A DNA stretch of 64,000 nt from Alloascoidea hylecoeti. Its lineage: Eukaryota. The stretch is taken from NCBI GenBank assembly GCA_001600815.1, contig BCKZ01000004.1:1019566-1083565 (forward strand). Direction: 5' to 3'. The position numbers were made by a program, and so were the translations under genes. Below the pieces are notes generated by a model. The model was not told the origin of the DNA, did no database searches, and was given only the letters and a program-made list of their open reading frames with translations. Of the stretch, positions 19,268-35,909 are shown in pieces. Each line of letters starts with the position of its first letter. The first letter of the stretch is position 1.

Positions 19268-20920
19268 ATGTCTTCAGCCATTCCCGGTCAATTTCCAGAT
19301 TTATTAAAGAGTAATCATGAAGAATCCACATCATCCATCCTTAACGATCCGGAGAAACAATGCTGGATATGTCTAGGGACAGATTCAGAACCACCACCTT
19401 TAAACAACCCCAAAGGTCATGAATGGATACATCCGTGTAGATGTTCTTTATTAGCACATAGAACGTGCCTGTTAGAATGGATCAATGAACTGGAGAAAAA
19501 CAACGGGAACGAAACCGATAATGTTATAGTAGCCAATGATGAAATCAATCATTCAACTCAAGGAAAAGGTCCTTTCTTTATCAAAAAGGATGAAAACACA
19601 TTTATCTATTCAGGAATAACATGTCCTCAATGCAGTCAGCCTATTTATATCACTATAGCTCGAAGTAAAGTATTAACAACAAGGAAAAAGATAGAAAATA
19701 CTATTTTAACATCGAGTTTCTCTATTCTGATGTCTACTCTTGCCACAGGTACTATCACAGTCGTTTACTTCATACTAATGGGTGCTGGTGCCAGTGTGAC
19801 TGGAGTTATGTGTTCTCAAGATACTTTTCTACATGTTATGGGGATTAGAAGAAGAGCTTATATTTTTGATACTTATCCTTCAACTATTTCCTATGATATC
19901 TTACCACCGAGTTCCCCACAAGCTATTCGAAGAGGTTTACTCATTACATGGATCCCCTTTTATTTATTAACAATCAGAAGACCTTTGGGGTTTAATTTTT
20001 CTAATATAACAACATTTATTTGTCCTTTAATGTTATATGATCGTCATGATTTATCACCAAAAAGAATCTGGAGACTTGGAGGGCCTCGTTTACTTTGTGT
20101 TGCAGTTCCTTTCTTGAGATTGGGATATAAAGTCTGGTATAATTTTGTAGTCAATTATTTTTACTATAAATTGGCTGTGACTGTAAGACCACATCTTCTT
20201 GAGAACGATATCGAGAACAATAGTAATGCTGGTGCAGTTCTTAACGATGGTGAAATAGTTGAAGTCAATCAGCAACCATCACTCGTTCAACGCTTATATA
20301 ATAACACAAAGAATTTATTAGGTCGATTGTTTACTATAAATCATGGTAGTTTTGCAATACTTCCAAGAACTTATTTTTCAAAATTGATTCATAAAGATTA
20401 TTCTGATTATTTTTATAATTCTACTATTCTTTTCAATTTGGCAAGTACTTGGATTTGGCCCTATGTTGGTTCAATAATTGGAAGAGCTATATTACCACAT
20501 ATTAAAATTCCCAGTATTCTATTAAAAAATCCAACATTTAACAGTTTTAGGAGGAGAATTTATTCTAATTATGATAGAGATTTTACGTTTACGAGAAATA
20601 TTATTGGTTGTTGTTTAGTAGTATTACTAAAAGATGTAGTTAATGTTTATACTGCCTATAAGAAAGTTGAACAGATTAAAAGAAGACAAATATTGAAATA
20701 CAAATCCGAAGATTGGGAAGTTGTGGATGATATTTCAAAAAATTATCATAAACGATTGAACAATGCTAACCCCATTAATAATAATATTGGTGATAATATT
20801 AATAATGATAATAATGATAATAATGATAATAATAATAATAATGATGGGTTTGATAATATCAATGATGATGGTATGAGGAATATTCGATTTGGTAATCTCA
20901 ATATACGTCTAAATTTTTAA
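19268..20920 (+). CDS. RING-CH (RINGv) membrane E3 ubiquitin ligase, MARCH5-like
   Basis: CWIC...WIHPCRCSLLAHRTCLLEWI...CPQC followed by several hydrophobic segments. Confidence 0.8.
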   Translation: MSSAIPGQFPDLLKSNHEESTSSILNDPEKQCWICLGTDSEPPPLNNPKGHEWIHPCRCSLLAHRTCLLEWINELEKNNGNETDNVIVANDEINHSTQGKGPFFIKKDENTFIYSGITCPQCSQPIYITIARSKVLTTRKKIENTILTSSFSILMSTLATGTITVVYFILMGAGASVTGVMCSQDTFLHVMGIRRRAYIFDTYPSTISYDILPPSSPQAIRRGLLITWIPFYLLTIRRPLGFNFSNITTFICPLMLYDRHDLSPKRIWRLGGPRLLCVAVPFLRLGYKVWYNFVVNYFYYKLAVTVRPHLLENDIENNSNAGAVLNDGEIVEVNQQPSLVQRLYNNTKNLLGRLFTINHGSFAILPRTYFSKLIHKDYSDYFYNSTILFNLASTWIWPYVGSIIGRAILPHIKIPSILLKNPTFNSFRRRIYSNYDRDFTFTRNIIGCCLVVLLKDVVNVYTAYKKVEQIKRRQILKYKSEDWEVVDDISKNYHKRLNNANPINNNIGDNINNDNNDNNDNNNNNDGFDNINDDGMRNIRFGNLNIRLNF

Positions 20921-21251
20921 AAGTTTAAGAATATCATGATCATTATAAATAGATATAGGTATATAAGCTACTATGTAATTAGTTAAACTCGATTGTATTC
21001 AGTTAAATAAACTAGAAATAAAAAGAATAACAATAGAAAGATAGCTCACATTAGAAAGGACCTCCTCTCGACTGCACATCCCGACAATAATTATATAAGT
21101 ACGATTAAATAAATGTGATAAAAAAAATATAGCGGTATTCCTCAATATTGCGAACTACATATATCATCACGGATATTAGCGCAAGAAAAATCACCGGTAA
21201 TCTAGCTGAATTAGCTACGAATTCTTGTGTAGAAATTCCTGTCTTATAACT

Positions 21252-21470
21252 GATATCTCTGAGATTTTGTGGAGTTAATTACAGGGTAGTTTCGAAAGGT
21301 TTGATCATCACCACAAAAGTCATACACCCCTTATAACCTTATTACTAAAACAATAACATTTTTTTTTTGATTTGTTCTCTATTCGCCTATATCCTAGTAA
21401 TTTAGCTCGGTGATATATTGTGATCATAGTTCGTTTTGTTTTATATACATGTATATGGTTAGTAATAAAA
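21252..21470 (+). repeat. Diverged direct repeat, copy 1 (copy 2 at 29061-29290)
   Basis: 30-bp identity GATATCTCTGAGATTTTGTGGAGTTAATTA, then collinear blocks TTTGTTCTxTATTCG, TAGTTCGTTTTGTTTTAT, TTAGTAATAAAA. Confidence 0.8.
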
Positions 21471-22045
21471 GTGAGGAAATATAAATAAATAAAAATAATT
21501 CATATTGATACAATTCAAGTTTCTTTATTTATATTAAGTAGTCTAGTTCATTGAGAAGGTAAACTCGACATAAAGTTTGTTTGGCTTTTCTCAAATGTTG
21601 GACTTACTTAAATATCTAACTAAAGTTCGGAAAAAGTTCAAGAATTTCTGTATCATTCATCATTATTAACCTTTTATGGTTGATTTTGGACTCTAATCGA
21701 AGTACCCGATTTCCGTTCCCAAGAATTCACGATTACTTAGTATCATCATCATCTTAGCGCGTCTGTTACCCTAACACAGACTTACTGAAATGAAATATGG
21801 CTGGCAAAATAATTTTCAAAAACTTCATCATCTTTTTGTCTATAGACTAGGGTGAATTTCTAGACATCCATTTGGTGAACCTGAAGTTGGAAGAACATGA
21901 TCAAAATATTCACCATAAGCAGCAGCTTCTTGAATAGGCAAGTCTTTAAAATCTTGATCTCCGAAAACAACACCTGTAACTACAGTTCCAAATTTTGGCC
22001 AATCATTATTATAAGCAACTACACTTCTTGGAAGTAAATTAGATA

Positions 22046-23198
22046 TGTTAAAGTTCAAAGTGCCTGTTCTCCCAGTTGCGCCATAATTTCTCTTGACTAA
22101 ATGAAGCTAACTTTCTCATATAAAAATATGGAGTCTGATTAAAAGATTTAGTTGCTAGGAGAAACCTGGGTACATCAATTCCCTCGACTTTATTCAAGCT
22201 ATGACTATAGTCGCCTCGTGTCATGATCATGAAGAATTGAAAGTAAAATGCATCAGTGCAATCGTTGATATTCTGACGACGAACATTATTCAGCTCGCAA
22301 ACTGAGATTTTTACCCTGCGCATTGCACTAAGAGTCAAATTTACAAAGAGTATCGAATCAATTAAAGAAGAACCTCGAATCATATGATATTCAGGTCTAC
22401 TGAAATCTACTAAGTCAGCATTTGATGATGCATCTAAGTCAATCCGTCCATTCTTTAATTCAATATCTTCAGACAAAATTCTCTTGTACAAGACATTGTT
22501 TTCACCATCCTCTAACGCTATATTCAANTCTNNCNGTCNNNNNGNATNNNNNNTANTNTNTNTCNNANTNNNNNTNNNNANNNTNNNNNNTNNANCATNN
22601 NNNNTNANNNNNANNNNNNNTNANNNNNNNTNNNNNTNANNNNNNATGNTNNANNNNNNANNNTNNNNANNNNNANTNNGANANANANTANNNNNNATNC
22701 NNNNNGACNGNNAGANTTGAATATAGCGTTAGAGGATGGTGAAAACAATGTCTTGTACAAGAGAATTTTGTCTGAAGATATTGAATTAAAGAATGGACGG
22801 ATTGACTTAGATGCATCATCAAATGCTGACTTAGTAGATTTCAGTAGACCTGAATATCATATGATTCGAGGTTCTTCTTTAATTGATTCGATACTCTTTG
22901 TAAATTTGACTCTTAGTGCAATGCGCAGGGTAAAAATCTCAGTTTGCAAGCTGAATAATGTTCGTCGTCAGAATATCAACGATTGCACTGATGCATTTTA
23001 CTTTCAATTCTTCATGATCATGACACGAGGCGACTATAGTCATAGCTTGAATAAAGTCGAGGGAATTGATGTACCCAGGTTTCTCCTAGCAACTAAATCT
23101 TTTAATCAGACTCCATATTTTTATATGAGAAAGTTAGCTTCATTTAGTCAAGAGAAATTATGGCGCAACTGGGAGAACAGGCACTTTGAACTTTAACA
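22046..23198. repeat. Long inverted repeat: arms 22046-22527 and 22717-23198 (482 bp), 189-bp N-masked loop
   Basis: Arms are reverse complements with one visible mismatch (22296 vs 22948; E/K in the mirrored 159-aa ORFs). Confidence 0.9.
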
Positions 23199-23499
23199 TG
23201 GTAGCGGCGCCGCCACGAGAGGCATCAGGTTCGAGTCCGCCGTAGGACAGTAGTTTACATCAGTCTAATTGAGGCTTACTAGGGTAACGCGTAAATGGCC
23301 CGAAAGTAAAATGTCCGAGTCAGTCTGCAAGAAGTCCGAAACCCGAAAAATCACGGGGGTGAGCAGATATGGCGATTAGTAAAGTGACCTGCCTAAGGTT
23401 GGGGGGTGTGTTGGATATATTACACTCTTGGAACAGTTCACTAAAGAGTCGATTGGCTTTTTGGCGCAACTGGGAGAACAGGCACTTTGAAATTTAACA
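22046..23499 (+). mobile_element. Non-autonomous miniature LTR element with an inverted-repeat cargo; 5-bp TSD AGATA
   Basis: AGATA at 22041-22045 and 23500-23504; TG...CA termini; PBS TGGTAGCGGCG at 23199; PPT GGGGGGTG 23401-23408; LTR TGTT...AACA 23409-23499; last 38 bp of LTR repeated at 23161-23198 and inverted at 22046-22083. Confidence 0.85.
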
Positions 23500-24433
23500 A
23501 GATAATATGGGGCCAGCTTTTAATCCAACGTCTTTAAATTTTAATTTTTCAACTGGTGGATATTTTTCATTTGTATCTCAATATGGTAAATATTAAGCAT
23601 ATTTTGAAAGTTGATGTTCTGTTTTGGTACTGTTAATTTACAATCTTTAACGTTTGCAGTATCATCATTTTCTTTCCAATTACCGTTGAAATGATTGGCT
23701 AAGTCATACAGTTGGGCATTTTTGTGATAGATCAAGCGTTTGAAAATTTAGAGTAGTGGAAGATCTAATTTTTCTTTTGCTGGATCAATTAACGGATTGG
23801 ATAAATTATCCGGGTTTTGTCATGATAATCCGTAAGACATGTCATATGCATATGCACATTGCACATTTCACACTTTAATAAATACTCTACGATCAAGAAA
23901 CATTCGTTTTCTATTGAAAACCCTGGAACTTTTTGAATTTTGGTGTCGTATATAAATTAATTGTTACGGGATAGATTACTAATTTATTAATATTGACACA
24001 CCAGCCCTAAAACTTCTATGAACTTTTGAGTATGAAGTAGTATGAGTACAATGAATACTCCAATGAGTACATTGGAACATAGTAAATGTTAACATCAGCC
24101 ACAAAGCTGATGTTGCGATTTAACTTTACGATTGCGTGTTATTTATATGTACCTTCGCAATAATTACTCTTATTACCTGCATTTTTCCCTCTTCTAACAT
24201 ATCAACATAAGCTTACATGTATATAGCTATATTTCTATAAGTTTAATGGTACTTAATAGTATGTGAAAAATGCCAACGGCTCATAAATATTCAAATAAAT
24301 CAATTATGCATACAACCGATATTGCGTCACATAACTTATACTAAAGACAGTTTAATATGGTTTCACTATAAAAAGAGATGAATGGAATATTCCTTCTGGT
24401 AACTACTTCATTGCTCATTTCTGATTTCTACTA

Positions 24434-26065: not shown

Positions 26066-26444
26066 ATCAGTATCTTGTTTTTATGTATTTATTTGTGTAA
26101 TTTATTATATTTTATAAAATTTAAATCTATAGTTCAAAACATACAAGGAATTACATTAAACATTAAAATCAAAAGAACATTCAATAATAAATTCAAGCAG
26201 TCCTTTTAAATATCCATTAATTTCTTCATCTGGAAATGATTCAATAGGCACTTCCACAAATATATAATTTTTTAGATCTTAATTCAGCGGCAGGAAGATT
26301 TTGAACGAGTTTTAATTAAACAACTACTAATTTCATAAAATTATCCCAGATACAATATCAACCATATCAACTTCAGTTGAGTTTTAAATATTGATTTTTG
26401 TTGATTATATGTAAGAACATGGTGGAACAAATTTATAGTTCATT

Positions 26445-26813
26445 ATTTTATTTCTAGTCCTAAAAGTTTTTCAATGTAATTGATTTGAACTGATTCTTTT
26501 TGTTCATGTCTTCTTCTTCTAGTGCCTCTTGGCAGTATTATATTCCCTTCATTGGTTGAAATTAATAAGTTTTTCGGAATATGTAATTCTTCANCATCAA
26601 ATGTNNNNNNTNNNNNNNNNNNNNNNNNNNNNNNNNNNNNNNNNNNANNNNNNACATTTGATGNTGAAGAATTACATATTCCGAAAAACTTATTAATTTC
26701 AACCAATGAAGGGAATATAATACTGCCAAGAGGCACTAGAAGAAGAAGACATGAACAAAAAGAATCAGTTCAAATCAATTACATTGAAAAACTTTTAGGA
26801 CTAGAAATAAAAT
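26445..26813. repeat. Inverted repeat of copia RT sequence: arms 26445-26604 and 26654-26813 (160 bp), 49-bp N-masked loop
   Basis: Arms are reverse complements, with a mirrored N at 26594/26664. Confidence 0.88.
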
Positions 26814-27766
26814 TAACTAAAAACAATGAAAATTTAAGATGCTTATTAATGAAGAAAGAAGGAGCAATAAAAGAAATCGGATTAGAATTAGATCTTGGGG
26901 ACGAGACAAATAATAAAATTATGAAAGCTTTAATTCCTTACAAAGCTAATAACTTTATAAGAAAAGAGGAATTAACAATGACAAAACTCAAATTTGACTA
27001 TAGAAGGGTTCTAGGTATGATAATGTATATATCTAATTCCTATTTTTGTTCCTTCTCCTGATGTAAACCCAATACCTATAGATATGACATAACCTATATT
27101 TGCAATTATATCAGCAGATACACAGATTACAAGTGTAAGGAAACATCAGAGATGTTAATTCAACTTGGAAGATACTTAACAAATACAAAAGAATTTGGCT
27201 TAAAAATCAAAAAATCTCTGAAATTTATTTCTGGTCTTGCAAGAATCGATTTTTATATTGATGCAGATCACGCTAATGATAGAGATGATAGATATAGTAC
27301 TTCTGGTGCTTTGATGTTATTGAACAACAACATTATCTACTATCATAGCAAATTGATGAGAATTGATGTCAAGAGTAGTTCAGAAAGTGAACTTTGTTCG
27401 TTAGATTTATCAATGGATAAAATAGACCGATTAAAGACACAAATATCTTGGGGTTATTTAAAAAGGTAGAAATAAAAATTTATGAAGACAATATGCCAGT
27501 AATTCTTTGGATCACTGGAATAAAGAATTATAAGATGAGAACAAAAACCTTGGATAACAAGTTGAAAGTGTTAAGAAGGAGATTTAATAAAGAATCCAAA
27601 TCAAAAGATGAGGTAGATTCATGGAATGAAAATCTTATCAAAATTGATGGTAAACTGAATCTAAGTGATTATCTTACTAAACCCATACCAAAGGGTGAAT
27701 TTCTATCATTAAGAGATAAATTGAACAACTCACTTTAAGTGACTTGAATACACAATTGAGAAGGAG

Positions 27767-28018
27767 TGTTGATTATATGTAAGAACATGGTGGAACAAAT
27801 TTATAGTTCATTATTTAGATTAACTAGACTAAATAGTTTTTGGGGATTCCATAATTTATATGGAGGAATTCCTACATTTTAGAAAGTATCGTAAAAATAT
27901 AATATAATAAATATATTCATATTTAATTTCCAAGAGTTTAAGAACAACGTGTTTATACAATCTGAGGACATCAATTAACAATGAGCGAACAAGAATCAAC
28001 ATCTAATTCTATTCAACA
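27767..28018 (+). repeat. Copia 3' LTR, 252 bp
   Basis: TGTTGA...TCAACA termini directly after the PPT; first 50 bp identical to 26399-26448. Confidence 0.92.
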
Positions 28019-35806: not shown

Positions 35807-35909
35807 NNNNNNNNNNNNNNNNNNNNNNNNNNNNNNNNNNNNNNNNNNNNNNNNNNNNNNNNNNNNNNNNNNNNNNNNNNNNNNNNNNNNNNNNNNNNNN
35901 NNNNNNNNN
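35807..35909. other. Assembly gap with overlapping duplicated flanks
   Basis: N run; ATTATCATATATTATATTATT...GTCCTCCGGTTATTAGAAATTTTAT occurs on both sides and differs mainly in homopolymers. Confidence 0.9.

Follow-up and report, generated by a model that had tools for sequence, protein, structure and literature searches.

A hairpin of viral nucleoprotein-like sequence in a very small LTR retroelement of the yeast Alloascoidea hylecoeti, and a possible single-event origin

How does a gene that is written in a genome as a long hairpin come into being? Hairpin loci usually originate in several steps, namely duplication, inversion and then fixation. A locus in the yeast Alloascoidea hylecoeti raises the question of a shorter route. 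It lies at positions 22041 to 23504 of a 64-kb stretch of contig BCKZ01000004.1 (contig positions 1,019,566 to 1,083,565; the whole stretch that was analysed is called the window, and all coordinates are counted from its first letter), and consists of a small long terminal repeat (LTR) retroelement in which part of one LTR is replaced by foreign, virus-like coding sequence present as two inverted arms. The locus reads as a single event that wrote a viral messenger RNA (mRNA) into the genome in hairpin form, with junctions that are still legible: the start of the R region of the LTR, two U5 termini and a target-site duplication. In our preferred reading, to which we assign a rough probability of 0.6, strong-stop complementary DNA (cDNA) of the element jumped to a viral mRNA, snapped back, copied itself, was completed on a normal element strand and was integrated. 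The window has a G+C content of about 30%, its genes are budding-yeast-like, and host DNA with genes flanks the element on both sides. The parts of the locus are the following.

22041 to 22045, no strand: left copy of the target-site duplication, AGATA (direct reading and repeat search).
22046 to 22083, minus strand: inverted 38-bp 3' end of the LTR, of R-U5 type, TGTTAAAG..., a 100% reverse complement of 23161 to 23198; 22046 is the terminus of the element family (9 contigs with unlike flanks from sequencing run X1, described below).
22084 to 22527, minus strand: left arm of the cargo, 444 nt, antisense on the plus strand, with a nucleoprotein-like open reading frame (ORF) on the minus strand; 99.8% identity with the right arm.
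22528 to 22716, no strand: loop or centre, 189 positions of which 127 are N; the called letters are mirror-symmetric.
22717 to 23160, plus strand: right arm of the cargo in mRNA sense, 148 open codons, with homology to a mononegavirus-like nucleoprotein-like gene.
23161 to 23198, plus strand: 38-bp R-U5 of the 5' LTR, with the 53-bp U3 missing and cargo in its place (repeat search and count of a 30-nt core).
23199 to 23211, plus strand: primer-binding-site-like TGGTAGCGGCGCC, directly after the LTR end (reading of the sequence).
23199 to 23408, plus strand: non-coding internal region of the mini-element, 210 bp (reading of the sequence; no Rfam match).
23395 to 23408, plus strand: polypurine-tract-like AAGGTTGGGGGGTG, adjoining the 3' LTR (reading of the sequence).
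23409 to 23499, plus strand: complete 3' LTR, 91 bp, TGTTGG...TTTAACA; its U3 part agrees in 28 of 30 letters with the consensus of 13 X1 contigs.
23500 to 23504, no strand: right copy of the target-site duplication, AGATA (direct reading and repeat search).

The two called arms (22046 to 22527 and 22717 to 23198) are 482 bp each, made up of 38 bp of LTR end and 444 bp of cargo, and they agree at 481 of 482 positions. Over the whole palindrome, 1155 bases from 22045 to 23199, a single mirrored pair fails (22296 C against 22948 A). The window contains three occurrences of a 30-nt core of the LTR end (22054 to 22083 on the minus strand, 23161 to 23190 and 23462 to 23491), and 100 shuffles contained none. 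The cargo has no further copy in a window-wide search. When the two LTR copies are compared as direct repeats, the 3' LTR is complete with TG...CA ends and the 5' copy comprises the last 38 bp only: the match starts at 23161, the TT at 23158 to 23159 also matching and 23160 being mismatched. The first 53 bp of the LTR have therefore been replaced by cargo. The probability that AGATA recurs at a given place by chance is 0.0023 at the base composition of the window. The primer-binding site presumably belongs with those of Ty1-type elements, whose initiator-tRNA primer sites TGGTAGCGGCGCC resembles; no initiator tRNA gene is present in the 64-kb window, and an Rfam search of 23150 to 23520 returned no match at E values up to 1. 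We regard the locus as probably one integrated copy of a very small and very abundant LTR retroelement, non-autonomous and of Ty1/copia-mobilised type, with 91-bp LTRs and a total length of about 430 bp, whose primer site is Ty1-like and whose target duplication is 5 bp long. This copy is young, as judged from its 148 open codons and the 481/482 arm identity. Much of this layout had been proposed in a sequence-only reading of the locus, and the order of parts that it gave (AGATA, inverted 38-bp LTR end, arms, primer-binding site, internal region, polypurine tract, 91-bp LTR) is upheld by our own reading and by the repeat search, as is the absence of the LTR's first 53 bp on the 5' side. The 189-bp loop that it described holds as an interval but not as a read sequence.

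Only 62 of the 189 loop positions are called (33%), and these are mirror-symmetric. If an N stood for each disagreement between the loop and its own reverse complement, a called share of 27% would be expected from the arm composition. We read this as an assembly that failed to orient the loop, or as a loop that is present in both orientations. The possibility that the loop is a rearranged piece of the arms was considered and rejected, as its called letters fit no other part of the window.

The identity of the cargo was approached through its protein relatives. The frame of the right arm is open for 148 cargo codons and reads on into the LTR. A phmmer search covering 1.84 billion representative proteins, with E values up to 1e-3, matched 21 proteins. 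The closest, P0002, is a 170-aa protein from a 14-kb NCBI contig with 87% identity to the cargo (E = 6.7e-55); the other 20 are 287 to 591 aa long, most of them about 300 to 330, and share 26 to 39% identity with it (E from 2.6e-9, for P0003, to 4.4e-4). A profile comparison with hhalign gave a probability of 99.8%, the profile including the 87%-identical P0002. No Pfam family was found in the cargo or in 13 relatives, a PDB sequence search with the cargo gave nothing below E = 0.37, the ESM Atlas held no usable match for the cargo family, and a viral contig collection held no confirmed relative of it.

The genomic setting of these relatives is informative. A scan of metagenome contigs of the Joint Genome Institute (JGI) yielded 229 candidate stretches, of which 199 code for relatives, and the best 80 loci, on contigs of 1.1 to 3.9 kb, were kept. 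In the 16 of these loci for which ORFs were listed, the long ORFs lie almost all on one strand, with 8 short minus-strand ORFs among about 55. Across the 80 loci, an A{5,}C motif, typically ATAAAAAAACC, is found in 141 of 171 regions following an ORF; its density is 4.16 per kb outside ORFs against 0.50 inside, and the coding strand has 267 instances of it, compared with 72 of its reverse-strand counterpart. In many loci the contig starts or ends coincide with this motif. This layout of ORFs and junction motifs is that of mononegavirus-type transcription units. Pfam showed no family above cut-off in 17 neighbouring ORFs of the relatives' loci, and no polymerase gene was seen on the contigs. 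The gene-junction motif of mymonaviruses, AAAACTTAGG, was considered and set aside, being present in only 1 of the 80 loci, which carry a motif of their own. As an observation in its own right, loci L001 to L080 form a large, apparently unnamed group of mononegavirus-like contigs that have a conserved ATAAAAAAACC-type motif after nearly every ORF and encode a nucleoprotein-like protein of about 305 aa.

Structure comparison points in the same direction. An AlphaFold model of P0003, built with 21 sequences, has a predicted local distance difference test score (pLDDT) of 88.4. Against BFVD it matches two ophiovirus nucleocapsid proteins (E = 1.8e-6 and 9.4e-5), and the weaker rows include many negative-strand-virus nucleoproteins. 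A Foldseek search of the PDB with this model gave no match at E up to 0.001, and in the VIA-align comparison with the PDB the best Z score was 3.0, with none at 5 or above; the VIA-align alignments longer than 170 residues were solely to nucleoproteins, those of measles, mumps, Nipah, Lloviu and Ebola viruses (Z 2.1 to 3.0). We conclude that the cargo comes from a mononegavirus-like RNA virus, being part of its nucleoprotein-like gene, and that its mRNA sense follows the direction of the element. The family to which it belongs is one of nucleoprotein-like proteins of about 305 aa from mononegavirus-like viruses.

Is the carrier truly a retroelement family, and is the left end of the locus a true element end? 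Sequencing-run contigs bear on both points. Part of 22717 to 23800 is contained in 7 of the 11 runs listed, and in 4 of these at least half of the sampled words are present. Three studies contributed these runs, none of which is of RNA. Contigs of X1, X2 and X4 (three studies, one of them a metagenome) were aligned on 20000 to 22527, and 24 of 329 pieces were listed; in X6, from a related organism, no contig aligned on this interval. The summed depth of the bin at the LTR end (22040 to 22124) is 35479 in X1, 3898 in X2 and 5505 in X4, against single-copy depths of 55.8 to 58.6, about 6.3 to 9.1 and about 6.9 to 11.8, respectively, which places the LTR end at about 500 to 600 times single-copy depth in all three. 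Of the X1 contigs, 19 that differ in their flanks break off at 22046 (9), 22045 (7) or 22044 (3), and 13 run from 22083 into AAAAGCCAATCGACTCTTTAGTGAACTG, which, once reverse-complemented, agrees in 28 of 30 letters with the U3 part of the 3' LTR in the window. Taken together, the abundance, the breaks at the terminus and the canonical continuations show that the family is large, that 22046 is its true terminus and that normal copies carry the full LTR. The arms, in contrast, are found at about twice single-copy depth: 100.9 and 128.3 in X1, 8.77 and 13.7 in X2, and 23.4 and 16.9 in X4. A 195-nt contig, 22333 to 22527, stops at the identical base 22527 in all three runs, which fits an arm identity ending there. 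We take the arm depths and this common end as evidence that the duplication is genuine.

Some further observations on the family stand apart from these. A depth of about 500 to 600 times single copy would mean either that the family is remarkably large, given a small yeast genome, or that unintegrated cDNA is abundant. At LTR position 58 (22079), four contigs in each of X1 and X4, and two in X2, depart into mutually unlike sequence, and at position 61 (22076) one contig joins the first 15 bases of the LTR, a shortened LTR variant; the contigs leaving the LTR at these points may be further chimeric or deleted family members. The LTR pattern had 0 matches in metagenome contigs.

The junction between LTR and cargo indicates where a switch of template may have taken place. 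It falls at LTR position 53/54, about 41 to 46 bp after the ATATAT of U3 (LTR positions 7 to 12). The spacing makes the junction a plausible transcription start, and the 38 bp that follow would be R-U5, the length of the strong-stop DNA. Across the junction the cargo reads ...EKLW and then RNWENRHFEL, and P0002 reads ...EKLW and then TSWVKG...LGLAGYRY. P0002 keeps its nucleoprotein homology beyond this point, including the family-invariant G-x-A-G-Y-R, and the crossover therefore lies in the shared TGG. The pairing could extend further, as the TGG-6 nt-TGGG of the LTR could pair with a viral TGG-6 nt-TGGG (W-T-S-W-V), deduced from the amino acids only.

These junctions can be placed in the steps of one faulty round of reverse transcription. 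Minus-strand strong-stop DNA, consisting of the tRNA primer and the 38-nt R-U5, would have skipped transfer to the 3' R of the element RNA and annealed instead to the viral nucleoprotein-like mRNA at a short homology (TGG, possibly TGG-6 nt-TGGG). At least 444 nt, and probably about 630 nt, of the viral mRNA would then have been copied towards its 5' end. Upon removal of the RNA by RNase H, the 3' end could fold back and prime on itself, and self-copying through cargo, R-U5 and the 3' end of the tRNA would yield a primer-binding-site tail like that of plus-strand strong-stop DNA. With this tail the second transfer could proceed as usual, to the minus strand of a normal element packaged alongside, and completion of both strands would give U5'-cargo'-loop-cargo-U5-PBS-internal-PPT-LTR (PBS, primer-binding site; PPT, polypurine tract). 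Since both termini end in ...AACA-3', integrase could finally have inserted the product into a host reading frame, duplicating 5 bp of the target. The arms include the LTR and stop at its last base, and the target duplication encloses the whole, which argues that the fold-back took place on the chimeric cDNA before integration; a fold-back in the chromosome is unlikely. The proposed steps account for every junction. A copy-back defective viral RNA was considered as the source of the hairpin and rejected, as the arms contain 38 bp of LTR.

Several ideas of the sequence-only reading can be set against these results. Its proposal of a foreign coding cargo, with the left arm antisense, is borne out by the nucleoprotein-like homology in mRNA sense relative to the element, and its assignment of the left end as U5-type agrees with the contig breaks (9, 7 and 3 in X1 at 22046, 22045 and 22044), which make 22046 the terminus of the family. 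It had reasoned that copies all carrying the same arms would mark an ordinary element with long terminal inverted repeats (TIRs); the 13 X1 contigs that enter canonical U3 are not of this kind. The template switch, fold-back and integration that it suggested are supported in part, and the proposal gains precision from the viral cargo, the family context and the indications of further such events; the order of the steps is one that we infer.

The insertion site itself is legible as well.

21840 to 22045, minus strand: downstream part of an interrupted host reading frame, ...SNLLPRSVVAYNNDWPKFG..., in frame with the right flank ...KFKDVGLKAGPI (23505 onward).

Deleting the element together with one AGATA gives a continuous minus-strand frame, ...KFKDVGLKAGPI-L-SNLLPRSVVAYNNDWPKFG..., and we therefore take the insertion to have broken a host frame. 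This frame is possibly a gene relic, a stop lying shortly upstream. Separately, the stretch 21506 to 21931 has at least one paralogue of the interrupted frame elsewhere in the genome, seen on contigs of 2.4 to 5.2 kb with 11 to 18 differences and small indels.

A second copy of the cargo sequence is present in runs X1, X2 and X4. It aligns to window positions 22134 to 22527, with 86% identity over 22168 to 22397, and is also at about twice single-copy depth (105.7 and 123.1 in X1). Its differences from the window cargo touch 27 codons and change 11 residues without a new stop, and 20 of the 32 listed differences fall at third codon positions (p = 7e-4). This third-position excess indicates that the copies diverged largely under protein-level constraint, a pattern compatible either with independent captures of a virus that was itself diverging or with selection acting in the host. 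At 22428 the second copy's contig ends, and a contig at single-copy depth joins 22428 to 22527 on opposite strands (62.8 in X1, 6.7 in X2 and 6.3 in X4). We read this joint as the probable turning point of another hairpin made from the viral gene, its loop being 99 nt long; the presumed turn begins at the very cargo nucleotide where the window arms end. P0002 was tried as this second copy and rejected, agreeing with it at only 4 of the 11 changed residues; it is a third variant.

A palindrome of another kind lies 3 kb from the hairpin element.

26399 to 27875: second palindrome, in a truncated and degenerate copia-type element.
26445 to 26628 and 26630 to 26813: arms of the second palindrome, with N at the centre (26594 to 26664).

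The first 50 bp of this element's LTR stand to the left of the arms (26399 to 26448), identical to 27767 to 27816, and share 4 nt, ATTT, with the arm at the junction. The right arm is followed by a degenerate pol, a purine run and the LTR, which probably extends to about 27875. The pol piece is 95% identical to P0032, a copia-type reverse transcriptase with gag (Pfam PF07727 and PF14223); Pfam found no family in 3 copia-like ORF pieces of the window, and a PDB sequence search with a copia-like piece gave no match. Such a layout would result from a minus-strand snap-back, then a switch to plus-strand strong-stop DNA and run-off at U3 position 1. The window has three clusters of N in all, and the only one off a palindrome centre is a run of 103 N at 35807 to 35909, beside long poly-T/poly-A.

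Which other histories could have produced the hairpin locus? Two unequal partial chimeric cDNAs (cargo-R-U5...) might have been joined head to head in the particle or the nucleus and the dimer integrated, with no self-priming at all. We consider this unlikely. It would give the same final sequence, an asymmetric join would leave a non-palindromic centre, and the arm difference at 22296/22948 could mean that two molecules took part; it would, however, need two independent switches at the same cargo nucleotide, or a prior duplication of one product, and there is no sign of a join in a centre that is mostly N. An inverted duplication at the DNA level after insertion, by fold-back break repair or replication template switching, is quite improbable. 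Palindromes can form by fold-back repair, and a second palindrome 3 kb away could mean an event-prone locus or genome. On this account AGATA would be chance or a remnant, yet copying of the arm would have to cease precisely where the LTR ends, at the terminus that 9 X1 contigs mark for the family, and right beside a 5-mer equal to the right duplication (chance 0.0023). Nor is it obvious how a chimeric element that lacked a left LTR end could have been integrated with a target duplication at all.

The locus might instead be an artefact, in which the assembly folded a contig end back beside a repeat and the true structure is a single cargo-LTR copy. Two of the three N clusters of the window do sit at exact palindrome centres, both beside LTR sequence, and the left junction is bridged by none of the 24 contig pieces listed of 329. 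To this we accord a small probability, as the arms are about twofold deep in contigs of three studies, the metagenome included, with the same arm-contig end in each; the opposite-strand joint in cargo-like sequence is found at single-copy depth in all three runs; and a false arm would not be expected to carry a matching AGATA and an exact LTR terminus at its outer end. Least credible is an ordinary foldback-type DNA element with long TIRs, whose arms merely resemble an LTR end, and we give it only a very slight probability. Long terminal-inverted arms around a central spacer are what such an element would show, but the locus is asymmetric, with primer-binding site, internal region, polypurine tract and full LTR on one side only, and the other family copies carry the canonical LTR rather than the arms (13 X1 contigs). 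With arms at about twofold depth against an LTR end at about 500 to 600-fold, and most copies having a normal LTR start, this is not a long-TIR family.

The preferred reading, of a strong-stop cDNA that switched to a viral mRNA and snapped back before integration, has its own weak points, and several observations weigh against it. The loop being mostly N, the point of the turn and any homology that primed it are not visible. At the centre of the second palindrome 2 of 49 letters are called against an expected 27%, a poor fit to the idea of a loop in two orientations. Not one of the 24 listed pieces bridges 21931 to 22054, which includes the junction at 22045/22046, and none covers 21932 to about 22007, so that the left junction rests on the assembly and on partial depth: the bin from 21955 to 22039 reaches 0.32 to 0.42 of single-copy depth in X1, X2 and X4. 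Such a reduced depth is what a short flank-plus-LTR contig would give, an indirect argument. The contig comparison covered 20000 to 22527, on the left-arm side of the loop. X1 may be the source sample of the window assembly itself, and X1, X2 and X4 may be one strain, X2 and X4 showing identical variants. Lastly, the U5 of the arms (GAACTTT) differs by one base from that of the 3' LTR (GAAATTT), which fits the use of two templates and equally a later mutation.

How does the locus compare with systems that are already known? Terminal-repeat retrotransposons in miniature have very short LTRs, a primer-binding site and a polypurine tract, are non-coding and reach high copy number. An element of about 430 bp with a 91-bp LTR would rank among the smallest of them, and the present copy differs from them in having lost its 5' U3 and gained a foreign hairpin. 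Linked complementary arms are likewise the product of snap-back synthesis by reverse transcriptases and of copy-back defective genomes of negative-strand viruses, in which the nascent strand folds back; unlike copy-back viral genomes, the arms here include 38 bp of LTR, and the fold-back would have taken place on a chimeric cDNA.

Capture of viral RNA by the reverse transcriptase of LTR retrotransposons is already known from insects and cultured cells. As set out in passages of Poirier et al. 2018 (PMC5857290, citing Goic et al. 2013), insect viral DNA (vDNA) is formed when a retrotransposon reverse transcriptase copies non-retroviral RNA by copy choice; the junctions are mainly with LTRs, and the products feed small interfering RNA (siRNA). 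The A. hylecoeti locus is, like the vDNA of these passages, a chimera of RNA virus and LTR retrotransposon with an LTR junction. The vDNA is there described as mostly episomal, linear or circular, heterogeneous and somatic (PMC5857290). Here, unlike insect vDNA, there is one integrated germline copy (in a unicellular organism) with a target duplication, two U5 ends and an inverted repeat, and the host is a yeast and the virus of negative-strand type. Endogenous bornavirus-like nucleoprotein elements are a further point of comparison: according to two abstracts (PMC4574747, PMC4964890) they are processed pseudogenes made by host retrotransposon machinery and a proposed source of antiviral small RNA. 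The likeness is in a negative-strand-virus nucleoprotein mRNA that was reverse transcribed and fixed in host DNA, and the difference in the LTR-element carrier, the junction at the start of the LTR R region and the hairpin form of the insert.

Long-hairpin siRNA loci are already known in budding yeasts competent for RNA interference (RNAi); they are transcribed, and Dicer and Argonaute turn the transcripts into 22-23-nt siRNAs. In Naumovozyma castellii, according to excerpts of Getz et al. 2020 (PMC7528652), palindromic loci account for 74.1% of siRNA reads and their transcripts form long hairpins. The present locus shares with those described there a long near-perfect inverted repeat, with 482-bp arms, 1 mismatch and a 189-bp centre, and departs from them, as far as the excerpts tell, in a retroelement origin that can still be read. 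A transcript across the locus would, we infer, fold into a 482-bp duplex and could plausibly feed RNAi against the virus, so that a function as RNAi trigger is plausible. In the text retrieved by an open full-text literature search, with subscription papers outside its scope, neither a captured-RNA hairpin within an integrated LTR element that has U5 at both ends nor a negative-strand-virus nucleoprotein element in a budding yeast is described.

If confirmed, the locus would supply a mechanism, open to test, by which hairpin-RNA genes are born de novo, would apparently be the first LTR-carried endogenous element from a negative-strand-virus nucleoprotein in a budding yeast, and would point the way to mononegavirus-like viruses that infect yeasts and form a group not yet recognised. 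The second hairpin and the second palindrome are signs that the event is not unique. A wider proposal, which we hold to be tentative and rather doubtful, is that snap-back errors of retroelement reverse transcription are a recurrent route in this yeast lineage from RNAs of the particle or the cytoplasm to integrated, heritable hairpin genes, the present locus and the diverged second hairpin arising from viral mRNA and the copia-type palindrome from the element's own RNA. Were this true, it would explain the origin of the palindromic siRNA loci of budding yeasts; and if the species also has Dicer and Argonaute, such loci would be a sequence-specific memory, both antiviral and anti-transposon, and thus a fungal counterpart of the immunity conferred in insects by vDNA and endogenous viral elements.

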